Assembly (NCBI GenBank): GCA_963771355.1
Contig: CAVYTA010000008.1
Coordinates: forward strand, 32,001 to 96,000
DNA length: 64,000 nt
Source: an uncultured Candidatus Rokubacteria bacterium
GTDB lineage: Bacteria; Methylomirabilota; Methylomirabilia; Rokubacteriales; CSP1-6
Reading direction: 5' to 3'
Of this stretch, positions 2,201 through 59,405 are shown one piece after another. The notes beneath the pieces are model-generated. The model saw only the letters and a list, made by a program, of their open reading frames with translations, had not been told where the DNA came from and did not search any database. A program made the position numbers and the translations under genes. Positions within the stretch are counted from its first letter, which is position 1. Each line of letters begins with the position of its first letter.

Positions 2201-3387
2201 CGCCGGGCGAGGCCGCGCCCCATCCGGCGGGCGCCCCCCTCGACGCGGTGGCGCGCGTGCTGCGTGCCGTCGGCGGCGCCGCGGTGCGGGTGTCCGAGCC
2301 CGTGCTGCTCAAGTCCTGGGAGCGGAACGATGTCTGGCGTGTGCGCGTGACCCGCGCGGCGGCGACCGCTGGCCGTCCAGGTGAGCCCGGCCCGCCGGAC
2401 TCGGTCATCGTCAAGCGCTTCAAGTCGGAGCCGGCGCGAGGGCTCGACGAATGGGCGGCGCTCGAGCACCTCGACGCGCTGGGCATCGCGCCGGCCTCGG
2501 CTCCGCATTTCCTCGGCGGCGACCTCGCGGCCCGCTGTTTCGTGATGGAAGACCTGGGGGAGGGACCGAGCCTGGAGGATCTTCTCCGAGCGCGCGAACC
2601 AGGCGCCGCGGCGCGGGCCGGCGAGGCGCTCGTCGCCATCGCGCGCGCCACCGGCGCGCTTCATGCGGCCGCGCGCGAGCACGCGGGCGAATTCGACCGC
2701 CGCCGTGACGCGCTCGCGCCGCGCCCGGTCACGGCCCTGCGGGCGGCGGCGGACGCGCGGCGCGCCGCTCCCGCCGCGTTGCGCGCCTGGCTCGACGCGG
2801 CGGGCGCGGCGGCGGCGTCCGGACTCGAGGAGGCAGAGGCGGCTCTCGGGCGCGCCGCGGAGGAGCCGGGTGCCTGGGCCACCCTCACGCATGGCGACAT
2901 GGCGCCCAGCAACAATCTGCGCGCCAGGGATGGCTGGCGGCTGCTGGACTTCGAATACGCCGGCGTCCGTCACGCCCTGTACGACACGCTGCTCTGGACG
3001 CTCTTCTGTCCGTTCCCCCTCCCGCTCATCGAGCGCGCGGATCGCGCCTATCGCGCGGCGATGGCCGGCGCCTTCCCGCCCGCGCGCGACGAGGGCGAGT
3101 ATGCCCGCGCGCGGGCGCATGTGGCCGCGGGGCGGACCCTCGACCTCCTGCGGTGGCAGCCCCCCGCCTTGCTCGAGCGCGACCGTGACTGGGCCCCGGG
3201 CCTGACCGCGCGGCAGGCCGTGCTCTGGCATCTCGAGCGCTTCCTCGCCGTGGCGGAAGGAGGCGCGCCCACGCTCGCGCCGATCGCGGCGACGCTGGAG
3301 GGCCTCCACCGGCGGCTCGCCGCGGGCTGGAGCGCGGAGCGCGAGCGCGGCCTCGTCTGGCCCGCCTTCGGCGACGATCGGCTATGA
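2197..3387 (+). CDS. Aminoglycoside/choline phosphotransferase-like kinase
   Basis: VIVKRF lysine, HGDMAPSNN catalytic loop, LLDFEYAG; ATGA overlap with upstream gene. Confidence 0.75.
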   Translation: MTPGEAAPHPAGAPLDAVARVLRAVGGAAVRVSEPVLLKSWERNDVWRVRVTRAAATAGRPGEPGPPDSVIVKRFKSEPARGLDEWAALEHLDALGIAPASAPHFLGGDLAARCFVMEDLGEGPSLEDLLRAREPGAAARAGEALVAIARATGALHAAAREHAGEFDRRRDALAPRPVTALRAAADARRAAPAALRAWLDAAGAAAASGLEEAEAALGRAAEEPGAWATLTHGDMAPSNNLRARDGWRLLDFEYAGVRHALYDTLLWTLFCPFPLPLIERADRAYRAAMAGAFPPARDEGEYARARAHVAAGRTLDLLRWQPPALLERDRDWAPGLTARQAVLWHLERFLAVAEGGAPTLAPIAATLEGLHRRLAAGWSAERERGLVWPAFGDDRL

Positions 3388-6348: not shown

Positions 6349-8697
6349 ATGAGCGATGACGCGCCCACCGAGGCGTCCAGCAAACTGACCGACGGGGCGC
6401 CGTATATCGGTCGGGGCATGAAGCGCGTGGAGGACCGCGTGCTCCTCCTCGGCGTTGGGCGCTATACCGACGACATCCCGATGCCCGGGCTCCTCCACGT
6501 GGCGTTCGTACGCAGCCCGCATGCCCACGCGCGGGTGCGCGGGCTCGATACCTCACATGCGCGGCAGGCGCCCGGCGTGGCCGCCGTGGTCACCGGTGCC
6601 GACGTGCGCGACCTCGGCCACATGCCCACCAACCGGATGGTCCAGGGCATGAAGGTCCCGCCGCACCCGATTCTCTCGGAAGGTCTGGTCGCCTGCGTGG
6701 GTGACGCGGTGGCCGCGGTGGCGGCGGACTCCGCGTATGCCGCGCGCGACGCGGCAGACCTGATCGTGGTGGACTGGGACCCGCTGCCCGCGCAGCCCGA
6801 TGTTGACGCGGCGCTGTCCGCCGGCGCGCCCGCGGTGTTCGACACCATCGGCGGTAACGTCTCGTTTACCCACCGGTGGCGCTCGGGAGACGCGGAGGCC
6901 GCCTTTGCCGGCGCGGCACGGATCGTCACCGTGCGCTCGGTCCAGCCGCGGCTGGCCGGCGTGGCCATGGAGCCGCGGACGACGCTGGCCTGGCTCGATC
7001 CCAGCGCGGACGAGCTGCGTGTGTGGTCTTCCACCCAGTCGCCCTTCCGCGTGCGCGCGGAGGTGGCCGCCTCGCTCGGCTATCCCGAGTCGCGCATCCG
7101 CGTGGTGGCGCCCCAGGTGGGCGGCGGCTTCGGCGTCAAGGGCTCGCCCTATCGCGAGGACGTGCTGGTGGCCTGGCTCGCGCTTCGCCTGGGCCGGCCG
7201 GTGAAGTGGGTGGCCACGCGCGACGAGGACACCATGACGACCCAGCAGGGGCGCGGCATGACGGCCGACGCCGAGCTCGCGGTGGACGCCGGCGGCGTCA
7301 TTCGCGGGGTACGCGCGCGCATCCGCTATCCGATGGGCGGGCGCTTCGCGATGAACAGCGCGGGGCCGGCGTGGAATGCGGGCCGGACCCTGCCGGGTCC
7401 CTATGCGGTTTCCGCCACCGACATCGAGATCACCGGCGCCGTCACCACCACGCCGCCCACCGGCGCCTATCGCGGGGCGGGGCGCCCCGAAGGGACCTTC
7501 CTGATCGAGCGCCTCATGGACGAGGCCGCGCATGCCCTGGGCCTCGATCCGGTGGAGATCCGGCGGCGCAATGTCGTCCCCCCGGACGTGTTTCCCTATC
7601 GGAGCGCGACCAACGTGGTCTATGACTCCGGCCGCTATCGCGAGGCGCTCGACAAGGCGCTTGCGCTTGCGAAGTACGACGAGCTCCGCGTGCGCCAGCG
7701 CGAGGCCCGCGCGCGGGGCGAGATCGCGGGCGTGGGCGTGGTGGTCTATGTCGAGCCCGCCGCCGCGGGCTGGGAAAGCGGCAATGTGCGGGTGGAGCGC
7801 ACGGGCGCGGTGACCCTCGTCACCGGCTCCAGCGCGCACGGCCAGGGGCACGAGACCACCTGGGCGCAGATCGTGGCGGACGCCCTCGGCGTGCGCCCAG
7901 AGGAAGTCACGGTGCGCCACGGTGACACCGGCGGGGCGCCGCAGGGCTTCGGCACCTTCGGCAGCCGCTCCACCGTGCTGGGCGGAAGCGCCGCCTTCCG
8001 CGCCGCCGAGGAAGTGCGCGAGAAGGGCCGGCGCATCGCCGCGCGGCTCCTCGAGGCGGGCCTGGACGACGTGGTGGCGGTGCCCGGCGGCTTCCATGTG
8101 GTGGGCACGCCGGGCAAGCGCGTGGGATGGGCCCAGGTGGCGGCGGTCGCGCATGGCGCCGCGCGGCTGGGCCCCGGCGACACGCCCGGGCTCGAGGCCA
8201 CGGTGTTCTTCCAGGCCGACGGCGAGACCTGGTCCTTCGGCGCCTGCGTGGTCGGGGCGACGGTGAGCCGCGACACCGGCGAGGTGACGCTCACCGACTG
8301 CGTGTGGGTGGACGACGCGGGCACCATCGTGAACCCGCTGCTGGCCGAGGCCCAGCTGCACGGGGCCCATGCCCAGGGGGTGGGGCAGGCGCTGCTCGAG
8401 GCGCTGGTCTATGACGCCGAGGGCCAGCTCCTCACCGGCACGCTCATGGACTATGCGCTGCCGCGCGCGGGGGATTTCGCAGCGCCCGTCATCGGCAAGA
8501 TGGTCACGCCCTCACCCCGCAACCCGCTGGGCGCCAAGGGCCTCGGCGAGGCCGGCTGCATCGTGATGCCGCCTGCCATCGTGAACGCGGTGGTGGACGC
8601 GCTCCGCCCCTTCGGCGTCAACAACCTGGACATGCCGCTGACTCCCGAGAAGGTCTGGTCAGCGATGCGAAACGGCGGTCAGCCCGAGCGCCGCTGA
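6349..8697 (+). CDS. Xanthine dehydrogenase-family molybdopterin-binding large subunit (form II CoxL-like)
   Basis: VGGGFGVKG, AYRGAGRPE, HGQGHET, GTFGSRS, KGLGEAG motifs; alternative start at 6337. Confidence 0.92.
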   Translation: MSDDAPTEASSKLTDGAPYIGRGMKRVEDRVLLLGVGRYTDDIPMPGLLHVAFVRSPHAHARVRGLDTSHARQAPGVAAVVTGADVRDLGHMPTNRMVQGMKVPPHPILSEGLVACVGDAVAAVAADSAYAARDAADLIVVDWDPLPAQPDVDAALSAGAPAVFDTIGGNVSFTHRWRSGDAEAAFAGAARIVTVRSVQPRLAGVAMEPRTTLAWLDPSADELRVWSSTQSPFRVRAEVAASLGYPESRIRVVAPQVGGGFGVKGSPYREDVLVAWLALRLGRPVKWVATRDEDTMTTQQGRGMTADAELAVDAGGVIRGVRARIRYPMGGRFAMNSAGPAWNAGRTLPGPYAVSATDIEITGAVTTTPPTGAYRGAGRPEGTFLIERLMDEAAHALGLDPVEIRRRNVVPPDVFPYRSATNVVYDSGRYREALDKALALAKYDELRVRQREARARGEIAGVGVVVYVEPAAAGWESGNVRVERTGAVTLVTGSSAHGQGHETTWAQIVADALGVRPEEVTVRHGDTGGAPQGFGTFGSRSTVLGGSAAFRAAEEVREKGRRIAARLLEAGLDDVVAVPGGFHVVGTPGKRVGWAQVAAVAHGAARLGPGDTPGLEATVFFQADGETWSFGACVVGATVSRDTGEVTLTDCVWVDDAGTIVNPLLAEAQLHGAHAQGVGQALLEALVYDAEGQLLTGTLMDYALPRAGDFAAPVIGKMVTPSPRNPLGAKGLGEAGCIVMPPAIVNAVVDALRPFGVNNLDMPLTPEKVWSAMRNGGQPERR

Positions 8698-9557
8698 CTT
8701 CGGTACCATTCGTAGATTTCTTCCCCCGTGGTGAACCACACGCCCTTCTTCTTCCGCATGTAGTCGTACACCGCCTCGAAGTACTTGATCCGGTGCGGCA
8801 CGCCCGAGATGTACGGGTGCACGGCCAGGGCCATCACGCGCGGGTTCTTCGCGCCCTCGAGGTACAGGCGATCGAACTGGTCCTTGACGCGCTGGAGCCA
8901 CTCCGAGGAGGTGTGGTGCTGGATGATCATCATAGGGATGTCGTTGAGCTCGAGCGAATACGGCACGGAGACGAGCGGCCCCGAGGTGGTGCGGATCTCG
9001 TAGGGCTGGTCGTCGTTGACCCAGTCGGAGACGTACTCGATGCCCTCGGCGGCCAGATGATCCAGCGTCTCCCACGTCTCGGTGAGGCCGGGGCCGAGCC
9101 AGCCCTTGGGCGCTTTCCCGGTGAACTTCCGCAGCATCTCGATGGACTGGCGGATCGCCGCGCGCTGGTCCGGCAGGAGGTGCATGGCGCCCTGGATCAC
9201 GCCATGGGCCATGAACTCCCAGCCCGCATCCAGCATGGCGCGCGCCACCGGCTCGTAGGACTCGACCACTTGCGCGTTGATGGCGGTGGTCGCGCGGATC
9301 TTCCGCTTGCCCAGCGCCTCGAGGAAGCGCCAGAAGCCCACGCGCATCCCGTAGTCGTGCCAGGCCCAGTTGGGCACGTCCGGCACCGTGGCCACGCCCT
9401 GCGGCGCGGGGAGGTATTGCCGCGCCATCGCCTTCTCGATGTCCCAGTCCTCGACGTTCACGATGGTCCACACCGCGATGCGCGCGCCCCGGGGCAGCTT
9501 CCACGGGGGGCGGTGGGCGATGGGCGAATAGTCGAAGCGGTCGCGCGGGAGTCTCAT
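8679..9557 (-). CDS. Polysaccharide deacetylase family protein (PuuE allantoinase-like)
   Basis: VNVEDW, DYGMRVGFWR, EFMAHG, GWLGPGL, DDQPY, LAVHPYISG. Confidence 0.88.
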   Translation of the reverse strand: MRLPRDRFDYSPIAHRPPWKLPRGARIAVWTIVNVEDWDIEKAMARQYLPAPQGVATVPDVPNWAWHDYGMRVGFWRFLEALGKRKIRATTAINAQVVESYEPVARAMLDAGWEFMAHGVIQGAMHLLPDQRAAIRQSIEMLRKFTGKAPKGWLGPGLTETWETLDHLAAEGIEYVSDWVNDDQPYEIRTTSGPLVSVPYSLELNDIPMMIIQHHTSSEWLQRVKDQFDRLYLEGAKNPRVMALAVHPYISGVPHRIKYFEAVYDYMRKKKGVWFTTGEEIYEWYRSQRRSG

Positions 9558-56042: not shown

Positions 56043-56321
56043 TTACTTGCTGGGCTGGTAGTAGGGGTTGCTGCCCGAGGCGTGGTCGGTGGTGTCGAGG
56101 ACTTCCTCGATCTCCGGGATCTCTTCCTTGATCAGCCGCTCGATGCCGGACTTGAGCGTCACGTCGGCGGCCCCGCAGCCCTGGCAGCCTCCGCCCATGG
56201 TGAGATACACCTTGTTGTCCTTGACGTCGATGAGATCCACGAAGCCTCCGTGGCCCGCCACCGCGGGATTGATCATCGAGTCGATCAGCTCCTGCACCTT
56301 GGTCTTGAGATCCTCGCTCAT
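56043..56321 (-). CDS. NifU/NfuA-type Fe-S cluster carrier (C-terminal domain)
   Basis: INPAVAGHGG, GGGCQGCG, DTTDHASGSNPYY; AAGGAGG RBS. Confidence 0.92.
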   Translation of the reverse strand: MSEDLKTKVQELIDSMINPAVAGHGGFVDLIDVKDNKVYLTMGGGCQGCGAADVTLKSGIERLIKEEIPEIEEVLDTTDHASGSNPYYQPSK

Positions 56322-56344: not shown

Positions 56345-57796
56345 CTAGATCACTACTGTACTCGAATATCCGGTAAGGGCCAACTGGCCCTTGGTGGGCT
56401 CCGCTCAGCAGAACCAGGGCTCGGTGAGGCGGGGCGGGCGTCGACGGTCGGGGGCCAGGCGCGGCGCCAGGGGTGCCGGGGCGGGGGTGCCCGCCGCCGT
56501 CGCGGCGAGGGCGCGCACACGGTCGAAGGTGACGGCGGAATCCTCGGCGCGCGGGGCCGATTCGGCGATGAGCGCCGCCACGCCGGCCTGGAGCGTCTCC
56601 ATCCGCGGGTCCGGGTGCCGCCACGCGTAGGAGAAATCCGCCGCCACCAGCGCGCCCAGATACGGCCGCATGCCGGGGTGGTCCACCAGCCGCGAGCCGG
56701 GCGGCACCAGGAGCCGCAGCGAGTACTGCACCGGGTCCACGTGGTCCACGAGGTCGCGCGCCGCGACCCAGTCGAGCACCTCCACGAAGTCGCGGAGCGT
56801 CGTCCACGGCGTGAACGCCACCCAGGTGGGCCGCAGCGCGATGCCGGCCGCGCGAGTGGCGGCCAGCGCGACCTCCACGTCGGCACGCGTGTGCCCCTTG
56901 TCGAGATGCGCGAGCACGGTCTCGCTGAGGGACTCCACCGCAGACACCACGAAGAGGCAGCCGAGCGCGCCCAGCTCGGGCAGGTCGCCCGCGCGCCGGA
57001 GCAGGTGCTCGACTTTGGCGGTGAAGTCGAAGGTGACCCCGGGAAACTCACGGTGCAGGCGCCGGACGACCTCGAGGGCGTGGCCGGGACCGTTGAGGAA
57101 GTCGGGATCGCCGAAGGTGATATGCCCCGCGCCTGCCTCCACCTGTTGCGCCACGTCCTCCAGGACCACATCCGCGGGCACCACGAAGAAGCGGCCCCCA
57201 TAGACGGGCGGGATGGGGCAGTGGCGACAGAGGTGCTTGCAGCCGCGGCTGGCCTCGACGTAGCCCACGGGGATCTGGCGCCCGTCGTGCTCGAGCCGCG
57301 CATAGGTCTTGAGCGCGGGCAGCGCAGCGCGGCTGGGCCGCGGCAGCGTGGGCCGTGCGATGTGGGGGCCCGCGGGCTGGCCCACGCGGCGCACCCCGGG
57401 GAGGGGGCCCGCCCGGCCGGACTCGAGCGCTTCCACGAGTGCGGCCAGCGGCTCCTCCACCTCGCCGCCGATCACGCTGTCGGCGCCATGGGCGAGCAGG
57501 TGCTCGGCGTTGAGCGTGGCGTAGAGCCCGTAGAAGCACACGTGAACGCCGGGATTGAGCCGCCGCACCCGCTCCGCCACGGTGATGCCCACGCGCAGCG
57601 CGGTGTGCATGGGTACGGAGATGGCGACCAGGCGCGCGCGGCGCACCTTCTCGGCGTCGAGGGGTTCGACCGAGATGTCGAGGACGGCGGGGGCGAACCC
57701 GCGCTGCTCGAGCACCGCCGCCGGCCAGGCCACCGCCAGCGGCTGGTGGCCCAGCTCGTAGCAGGCGATCAGCAACACAGCCCCGTGATCTCTCAC
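56345..57796 (-). CDS. CUAEP-tail B12-binding/radical SAM selenoprotein (UGA at 56407-56405 read as Sec; 483 aa)
   Basis: CKHLCRHC radical SAM motif; ...PRLTEPWFC-TGA-AEPTKG...; downstream SECIS-like hairpin; true stop TAG at 56347-56345. Confidence 0.85.
56375..56392 (-). promoter_or_regulatory. Putative bacterial SECIS element
   Basis: AAGGGCC-AGUU-GGCCCUU hairpin starting 12 nt 3' of the in-frame UGA, with GU in the apical loop. Confidence 0.7.
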
Positions 57797-57820: not shown

Positions 57821-58114
57821 CTAGGAGTAACTCGGCTCGGCGGGCAGCGGCAGCGGCGCGCGCAGGCGCGGGAGCGCCTCGTTCAGCACACGCCCGAGGC
57901 CATCGGCGAGGACGTCCGCCAGCTGGCCACGCTCGCGCCGCAGGCTGTCGTTCTCGCTCTGCAGGGCGTCGAGCTCGCGCCGGAGCTCGTTGACCTCCTG
58001 GAGGAGCCGGTTCGAGGCGCGCTCGGTGGCCTCGAGCCGGGCGCACAGGCGGTCCTGCTCGGTGAGGAGCCGGGTGATGCGAATCCGGGCGTCGTGGAAG
58101 TCCAGGTCGTCCAT
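57821..58114 (-). CDS. Small coiled-coil hypothetical protein
   Basis: Heptad-rich LLQEVNELRRELDALQSENDSLRRER; ATG 7 nt after TACACT. Confidence 0.7.
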   Translation of the reverse strand: MDDLDFHDARIRITRLLTEQDRLCARLEATERASNRLLQEVNELRRELDALQSENDSLRRERGQLADVLADGLGRVLNEALPRLRAPLPLPAEPSYS

Positions 58115-58199
58115 GGCCGGCAGTGTAGCACAGGATGGGGTGCAAGCCATGCATCCTACCGTATCTAGGGGGCAGGGCCCTGTGCTAGCCTCGAAGGCC

Positions 58200-59405
58200 A
58201 TGGCCGCCCGCCCCGCCGCGCTCGCCTTCATCTTCGTCACCGTCGTGCTCGACATGCTCGCGCTCGGCGTGATCATTCCGGTGCTGCCGCGGCTGGTGGT
58301 CAGCTTCCTCGGTGGGGACACCGCCCGCGCGGCGGAGATCTACGGCGTCTTCGGCACCGTGTGGGCGCTGATGCAGTTCGTGTCTTCTCCGGTGCTCGGC
58401 GCGCTGTCGGATCGCTGGGGCCGGCGGCCCGTCATCCTGCTCTCCAATCTCGGGCTGGGTCTCGACTACGTGCTGATGGCGCTGGCGCCCACGCTCACCT
58501 GGCTCTTCGTGGGCCGGGTGATTTCCGGCGTCACCGCGGCCAGCGTCAGCATCGCGGGCGCCTATATCGCCGACGTCACCCCGCCCGAGCAGCGCGCGCG
58601 GGGGTTCGGCATGATCGGCGCCGCGTTCGGCGTCGGGTTCATCTTGGGTCCCGCGCTGGGCGGCGTGCTGGGGGTGGTGGATCCGCGGCTGCCCTTCTGG
58701 GTGGCGGCGGGCTTGAGCCTGCTCAACGCGCTCTACGGTTACTTCGTGCTGCCGGAGTCCTTGCCGCGGGAGCGGCGCGCGCCCCTTCGGTGGCGGCGCG
58801 CCAATCCGCTGGGGGCCCTCGGCCTCCTCGGCTCGCACCGGGAGCTCGGCGGCCTCGCCATTGTCCATTTCATCGGCCGGGTGGCGCACGAGGTGCTGCC
58901 GAGCGTCTTCGTCCTCTACGCGGGCTATCGCTACGGATGGGACGAGCGAGCCCTGGGGCTCTTTCTCGCCGCGGTGGGGCTGTCCACCATGATCGTCTCG
59001 GGACGCCTCGTGCACCCGATCGTCAGCCGGCTGGGCGAGCGCTGGGCGCTGCTCCTGGCCCTGGCCTGCGGCGCCGTCGGCTTCGCGATCTACGGGCTCG
59101 CGTCGGTGGGAGTGGTGGCCCTGCTCGCGGTGCCCATCCACGCGCTCTGGGGCCTGGGGAGCCCGGCCGCGCAGGGCCTGATGACCCGCCGCGTGCCGGC
59201 CTCGGAGCAGGGGCAGCTCCAGGGCGCGCTGTCGAGCCTGGGCGGGATCGCCGGGCTCATCGGCCCCGGCCTCTTCACGCTGACCTTCGCGTGGTTCCTC
59301 GGCGCGCGCGGCGGGATCGCCTTGCCCGGCGCGCCGCTCCTCCTCGCCGCGCTCCTGATGCTGGTCTCGCTCGCGGTCGCGTGGCGCGCAACTCGCGCGC
59401 GTTAG
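58200..59405 (+). CDS. TCR/TetA-family MFS efflux transporter
   Basis: LDMLALGVIIPVLP, GALSDRWGRRPV, AYIADVT, GFILGPALGG, LPES, EQGQLQG. Confidence 0.9.
   Translation: MAARPAALAFIFVTVVLDMLALGVIIPVLPRLVVSFLGGDTARAAEIYGVFGTVWALMQFVSSPVLGALSDRWGRRPVILLSNLGLGLDYVLMALAPTLTWLFVGRVISGVTAASVSIAGAYIADVTPPEQRARGFGMIGAAFGVGFILGPALGGVLGVVDPRLPFWVAAGLSLLNALYGYFVLPESLPRERRAPLRWRRANPLGALGLLGSHRELGGLAIVHFIGRVAHEVLPSVFVLYAGYRYGWDERALGLFLAAVGLSTMIVSGRLVHPIVSRLGERWALLLALACGAVGFAIYGLASVGVVALLAVPIHALWGLGSPAAQGLMTRRVPASEQGQLQGALSSLGGIAGLIGPGLFTLTFAWFLGARGGIALPGAPLLLAALLMLVSLAVAWRATRAR

Follow-up and report, generated by a model that had tools for sequence, protein, structure and literature searches.

The gene at positions 56345 to 57796 (minus strand) of the window, which is the whole 64,000-nucleotide stretch of DNA analyzed, encodes a radical SAM protein of the CUAEP family, in which an in-frame TGA at 56407-56405 almost certainly codes for selenocysteine. 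Judged from sequence, the enzyme is a sister of ArsL, which forms an arsenic-carbon bond in arsinothricin biosynthesis, but is not an ArsL itself, and it is inherited together with an L-amino-acid ligase. This kinship and the partner genes (the ligase and an NfuA-like gene) are the points that the initial annotation of the DNA lacked, and through them the reaction of the family becomes directly testable.

The frame starts with GTG and contains a single in-frame TGA (56405..56407, minus strand; residue 464). On re-reading, it remained open past this codon to the TAG at 56347-56345, as the initial annotation had stated, and thus encodes 483 residues. The sequence around the codon is ...PRLTEPWFC-U-AEPTKGQLALTGYSSTVVI*, closed by the TAG. 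With translation table 11 the ORF ends at WFC (463 aa), and the closest database proteins are 455 to 463 aa long, with query coverage of at most 96%, as expected from the earlier remark that gene callers truncate the protein. The nearest named relatives belong to Rokubacteria/Methylomirabilota. Four read sets list no alternative letter at 56405-56407, and the DNA contig X7 (56118-57119) runs across the codon. Short RNA-contig pieces from two metatranscriptomes lie on the gene, which is not proof of transcription or recoding, and a scan for promoters and terminators yielded nothing useful.

The family assignment made in the initial annotation was confirmed: the 483-aa protein scored 701.4 bits against NF040546 (cut-off, 500), covering model positions 1-467 of 468, and contains both the C-[U/C]-A-E-P tail motif and CxxxCxxC. 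It scored 317 bits against the ArsL model NF040542, under the cut-off of 450, and at most 52 bits against every other B12-type radical SAM family. Within NF040546 it is an ordinary member, and no difference was found. The CxxxCxxC motif of the [4Fe-4S] cluster (C186/C190/C193; 57218..57241, minus strand), seen in the translation and the alignments, includes the family-invariant H192 and is followed by the likewise invariant P194. The B12-binding-like region, also noted earlier, corresponds to an N-terminal Rossmann domain at residues 8-121 (57434..57775, minus strand; Pfam B12-binding, 44.5 bits; also seen in the structural model) with putative cobalamin binding, and Pfam Radical_SAM spans residues 181-320. 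The tail motif PRLTEPWFC-U-AEP (residues 455-467; 56396..56434, minus strand) contains the vicinal Cys463-Sec464 pair. The AlphaFold model has a pLDDT of 93, with 93 for residues 451-460 and 63 for residues 461-470; its top fold match is AprD4, the others include TsrM, OxsB, and TokK, and no solved structure was close (best E value, 9e-6). The family is already named by NCBI, and the annotation itself is ordinary. In the passage on this family in 10.1101/2022.07.06.499078, it is termed uncharacterised, and a ligase/Nfu partnership is absent from that passage. Nothing further on its function or partners, and no enzyme-Nfu-ligase module, was found in the literature searched, where subscription journals were thinly covered.

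Recoding was assessed on related loci in GTDB genomes, of which 446 were confirmed and the best 80 used. At the position of the selenocysteine codon, TGA was present in 65 of these loci, TGC in nine, and TGT in three, while three could not be read. Conservation continued past the codon: E-P followed in 64 of the 65 TGA loci and in all 12 Cys loci, and Gln at +7 was found in 62 of 65 and 12 of 12, respectively. Furthermore, selA was present in 36 of 38 genomes with TGA versus 5 of 12 with Cys (given for 50 of the 80 loci). The genome containing the window (99.8% complete) harbors the full Sec machinery, with tRNA-Sec (selC), selA, and selB together on contig C7 and selD on C4, and three of its formate dehydrogenase genes likewise have an in-frame TGA with a similarly placed hairpin. 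Homolog alignment and a search for the Sec genes were the checks proposed in the initial annotation, which had named missing conservation past the UGA and missing Sec genes as grounds against it; conservation and genes were both found.

The hairpin described earlier as a SECIS element, AAGGGCC-AGUU-GGCCCUU, was located at 56375..56392 (minus strand). Its 7-bp stem begins 12 nt past the TGA, and the AGUU loop lies 19 nt past it. These values, together with a folding energy of -12.9 kcal/mol, all fall within the bSECIS constraints given in the legend to Fig. 2 of PMC13188914 (loop of 3-9 nt, stem of 4-16 bp, G in the first two loop positions, spacing of 16-37 nt, and MFE of -7.5 or below). Taken alone, the hairpin did not exceed chance when compared to shuffles in this 70% GC DNA (z = -0.6 to -2.0), and a crude motif-based SECIS scan of the genome returned 325 TGA-plus-hairpin candidates with no discrimination. 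Pair counting on an ungapped SECIS alignment was also discarded: 64% of the positions were paired, which is no better than in shuffles, because loops of 4 and 5 nt were mixed. In the register-aware count used instead, 59 of 63 scorable TGA loci, but none of the 12 Cys loci, had a stem that was 5 bp or longer and closed at the same position (best 80 of 446). In line with this, the Gln codon supplying the loop G was CAG in 61 of the 63 TGA loci, whereas CAA was used in 5 of the 12 Cys loci of the same set.

It is the comparative evidence, rather than the hairpin alone, that is decisive. That the TGA is a genuine stop followed by a chance hairpin is barely conceivable: the insignificance of the hairpin by itself would agree with it, but the alternation of TGA and Cys, the conserved AEP..Q past the codon, the restriction of the stem to TGA loci, the distribution of selA, and the complete Sec machinery with three TGA-bearing formate dehydrogenase genes all speak against it. 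The selenocysteine proposed in the initial annotation is thus upheld. Elsewhere in the genome, a peroxiredoxin-like gene (L136:210-851; G000:C7:781309ff) is interrupted by an in-frame TGA (YIW-U-PFC) and likewise has a hairpin whose loop is C-AGUU-G; it probably encodes a further selenoprotein.

The relationship to ArsL was analyzed by alignment and in a quick tree of 85 rows with three distant, long outgroups. ArsL (7 rows; support, 98) and CUAEP/CCAEP (75 rows; support, 96) were sisters with a support of 99, and an ArsL from the same order (locus L090; 517 bits; tail RCCIKC) was 37% identical to the CUAEP enzyme over 407 aa. ArsL (NF040542; tail RCCLKC) shares with the CUAEP enzyme the two-domain architecture and a vicinal Cys pair in the C-terminal tail, and both families have the vicinal CC/CU at the end, after the same WxHPDP element. 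Between 58 diverse CUAEP/CCAEP members and seven ArsL proteins, 36 positions are common, one of them a tail Cys. Another 29 positions, among them M63, H64, H192, P194, D232, H302, E459, and W461, are conserved among the CUAEP/CCAEP members but not in common with ArsL, and therefore the pocket differs. The tails differ, too: WFCUAEP offers two chalcogens (C-U), whereas ArsL has CCxxC, and the CUAEP enzyme carries an extra helical segment of approximately 45 residues before the tail. Conserved thiols or selenols in the 58 diverse members are limited to the three ligands of the cluster and the two residues of the tail, without a third tail Cys. Cys12 was considered as a stand-in for the latter and rejected, since all 75 close homologs have it but only 12 of the 58 diverse members do. 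Finally, the CUAEP gene, present in 92 of 121 genomes in its phylum, is near-core and found with ligase and Nfu genes, whereas ArsL is sporadic (1 of 182 genomes of the order) and found in an arsQML context.

The single true ArsL gene of the order (L090:6409-7701, minus strand; RCCIKC), found in a Rokubacteria genome, has an ArsP-type permease, a MarR-like regulator, and a DsbD-like gene as neighbors. One record, P0362, is an ArsN2-ArsM-ArsL triple fusion. That the genomic context of ArsL is arsenic-related is also stated in the available text of PMC8552651.

ArsL converts SAM to MTA and an aminocarboxypropyl (ACP) radical, the ACP group being transferred to tail-bound arsenic, and its RCCLKC tail is required for As binding but dispensable for SAM cleavage (10.1101/2024.02.01.577332). 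In 2024 it was described as the only CxxxCxxC enzyme making an ACP radical. In the part of 10.64898/2026.04.29.721666 that was available, the mechanism proposed for ArsL involves an electrophilic Fe-ACP species that the arsenic on the tail attacks; the arsenic is held by three Cys residues, and single Cys-to-Ala changes are reported to abolish activity. According to the accessible text of the review PMC13598754, the ArsL tail mutant "MCCA" is approximately 100-fold better on methylarsenate; as its name reads, this mutant keeps just two cysteines.

The gene 23 nt past the TAG (56043..56321, minus strand) encodes a 92-aa Fe-S carrier of the NfuA/NifU C-terminal type and is the sole Nfu-like match in the genome; it may have a general housekeeping role. 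The partner ligase gene lies outside the window (G000:C7:577319-578549), and its product is 63% identical to the query. It is split by one extra base at L093:1696 (G000:C7:~577514). This base is absent from the contigs of three other runs, and the frameshift is therefore probably an assembly error; the idea that the ligase is broken in this genome was dropped. Among the best 80 of 446 loci, the fetched flank contained an Nfu gene in 34, a ligase-type ATP-grasp gene in 30, DUF169 in 15, IscA/HesB in 14, and CDGSH in 9. Where the ligase is unlinked from the enzyme, an Nfu gene is often located before the ligase.

The pairing of enzyme and ligase extends to genomes in which the two genes are counted independently of position. 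In the 121 genomes of the enzyme's own phylum, both genes were present in 91, the enzyme only in 3, the ligase only in 9 (fragmented assemblies), and neither in 18, so that 91 of 94 carriers of the enzyme have the ligase versus 9 of 27 noncarriers; these numbers were compiled by hand, two sub-cut-off fragments being scored as present and one genome missing from the list being assigned according to the family tally. In 151 Acidobacteriota genomes, the corresponding numbers were 23, 1, 5 (including the unpublished G192), and 122, so that the ligase accompanies the enzyme in 23 of 24 carriers and is present in 5 of the 127 genomes lacking the enzyme. Controls in the same 151 genomes were much less strongly associated: arsM was found in 11 of 24 carriers and 75 of 127 noncarriers (p 0.27) and selA in 24 of 24 and 94 of 127. 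Such counts overstate the significance because the genomes are kin, yet the pattern repeats in two phyla. Across phyla, 44 of 50 carrier genomes have the ligase, and five of the six without it have DUF169 beside the enzyme instead. DUF169 was found in 8 of 24 carriers and 1 of 127 noncarriers in Acidobacteriota. It was nevertheless rejected as an obligate partner, being present at only 15 of the best 80 loci and as a weak match in the window's genome, and is regarded as optional; no solved structure close to DUF169 was found.

The closest solved structure to the ligase is BL00235 (PDB 3VOT; E value, 5.6e-41). The ligase has the same ATPgrasp_N, ATP-grasp_4, and LAL_C2 architecture as BL00235, BacD, and DdaF, but it scored far under the BacD (65 versus 850) and DdaF (58 versus 840) cut-offs, and the ESM Atlas gave generic ATP-grasp names only. 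The products of BL00235 include Met-Gly and Met-Met, according to the available text of PMC6920838. The likeness to BL00235 is modest and would not fix the specificity of the ligase.

Apparent enzyme-ligase fusions were reclassified as adjacency: P0396 and P0397 lose the tail because they are read off frame, and P0399 contains a frameshift. Two single, unverified records were not counted as proof, namely, P0383, with the ligase followed by the enzyme in one protein, and P0256, in which the frame of a CCAEP enzyme continues into a MerB alkylmercury-lyase domain. In two Blastocatellia genomes (L096 and L097), the ligase-enzyme cassette is adjoined by what we take, from its motifs, to be a selD-like gene. 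Within the window, an MFS transporter gene (57990-59405, plus strand), which most resembles TetA-family efflux pumps but is under all cut-offs, points away from the enzyme gene and is no recurring neighbor. A short coiled-coil ORF (57821-58321, minus strand) ends 24 nt before the start of the enzyme gene; it matched no family and was not among the recurring neighbors. In Acidobacteriota, a weakly ArsM-like methyltransferase gene with one in-frame TGA was present in 9 of the 24 genomes with the enzyme and in 2 of the 127 without it (G172, G190, G220, G232, G244, G256, G260, G268, and G299; also G179 and G280), an overlap that may reflect kinship.

By analogy with ArsL, it seems fairly probable that the CUAEP enzyme performs ACP chemistry. 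The ACP group of SAM would be transferred to an element held by the Cys463-Sec464 pair, and this tail-bound element would be the substrate. The product would be a methionine-like amino acid, which the ligase, acting after the enzyme, would couple into a small dipeptide, with NfuA as the cluster donor. NfuA acts with lipoyl synthase. The complete sequence, an ArsL-type transfer onto a tail-bound element and then ligation, is a plausible reading that we would place somewhat short of probable. The tail offers only two ligands, for which a two-coordinate species would be the best fit: it could be a sulfur or selenium adduct yielding (seleno)homocysteine, or methylarsenite yielding arsinothricin directly. 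Arsenite is disfavored, as the tail lacks a third Cys and the enzyme shows no association with ars genes. A point against the reading is that As is bound by three Cys residues in ArsL and the CUAEP family has two; moreover, making homocysteine from SAM by an ACP route would be wasteful. The CUAEP module is near-core in Rokubacteria and scattered over at least eight phyla; being near-core, it is more likely to make a housekeeping metabolite than an antibiotic. Still more tentatively, enzyme, NfuA, and ligase could constitute a widespread three-gene pathway, in which ArsL-type ACP-radical chemistry at the Cys-Sec tail joins carbon to a heteroatom (S, Se, or As). Such a pathway would release its product as a hitherto undescribed dipeptide metabolite or cofactor, and ArsL would be the arsenic-specialized offshoot of the larger family.

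The tail may be a redox or a metal(loid)-binding arm, as the initial annotation proposed, the As-binding Cys tail of ArsL being a close precedent. A purely redox role is assumed if the enzyme uses canonical 5'-deoxyadenosyl radical chemistry or transfers ACP onto an organic substrate, e.g., a dipeptide made by the ligase, and Cys-Sec is only a shuttle, as is the tail of thioredoxin reductase. The invariant His, Met, Asp, and Trp residues without ArsL counterparts suggest a different pocket, two vicinal ligands would suit a selenenylsulfide redox pair, and the IscA, CDGSH, and Nfu genes counted above are recurring Fe-S/redox neighbors. We nevertheless consider it unlikely, because in ArsL, the sole characterized close relative, the tail binds the substrate and 5'-dA is never formed, and because both families end in vicinal CC/CU past the same WxHPDP element. 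If, on the other hand, the tail presented a metal(loid) for methylation, the enzyme would be a cobalamin-dependent methyltransferase (class B radical SAM). Pfam B12-binding over the gathering score and the fold matches TsrM, OxsB, and TokK are consistent with this, and so is the CU motif common to HgcA, mentioned in the available part of 10.1101/2022.07.06.499078. However, this domain is also present in ArsL, which was active in assays naming no cobalamin (10.1101/2024.02.01.577332), and the methylase-family scores do not exceed 52 bits. The top fold match is AprD4, whose B12-like domain is not known to bind B12. Methylation is thus very unlikely.

An organoarsenic product is the arsenic special case of the preferred reading, transfer to a tail-bound element followed by ligation: arsenite or methylarsenite would be alkylated as by ArsL, and the ligase would convert the arsinothricin-type product to a Trojan-horse or storage dipeptide. 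It would agree with the sister position to ArsL, the preference of the ArsL tail mutant for methylarsenate (PMC13598754, available text), an unlinked arsR-arsM operon in the enzyme's own genome, the antibiotic dipeptides made by BacD and DdaF, the next relatives of the ligase, and the MerB domain after the intact tail of P0256. Several findings make this case quite unlikely, though. A crude motif scan detected no ars gene beside the best 80 of 446 loci (three weak matches) and no exporter or resistance gene recurs among their neighbors, whereas ArsL adjoins an ArsP-type permease or is fused to ArsN-ArsM. In addition, arsM is not associated with the enzyme in Acidobacteriota, and the enzyme is near-core where ArsL is found once. 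The probability left over by all these explanations belongs to reactions outside those listed. The sister family of ArsL is much larger, mostly Sec-bearing, and paired with one specific ligase across phyla, and this pairing points to an unknown metabolite in abundant uncultured soil and marine bacteria. The natural Cys forms make expression without recoding possible.

At five Planctomycetota loci, the gene order was enzyme, DUF169, and a signal-peptide protein with a tandem in-frame TGA-TGA (L026:4909-5511, L029:~8340-8945, L032:~2495-3085, L048:~8230-8864, and L067:8281-8907). The latter matched no Pfam or NCBIfam model; in a sample of 201 planctomycete genomes, one carried it. It has 439 homologs; the part before the two TGAs is missing from all of the best 120, and no Cys form was seen among these 120. 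The motif GAEM[HSN]-U-U-[AG]G[VM]A is conserved on either side of the tandem codons, making this protein a candidate di-selenocysteine protein.
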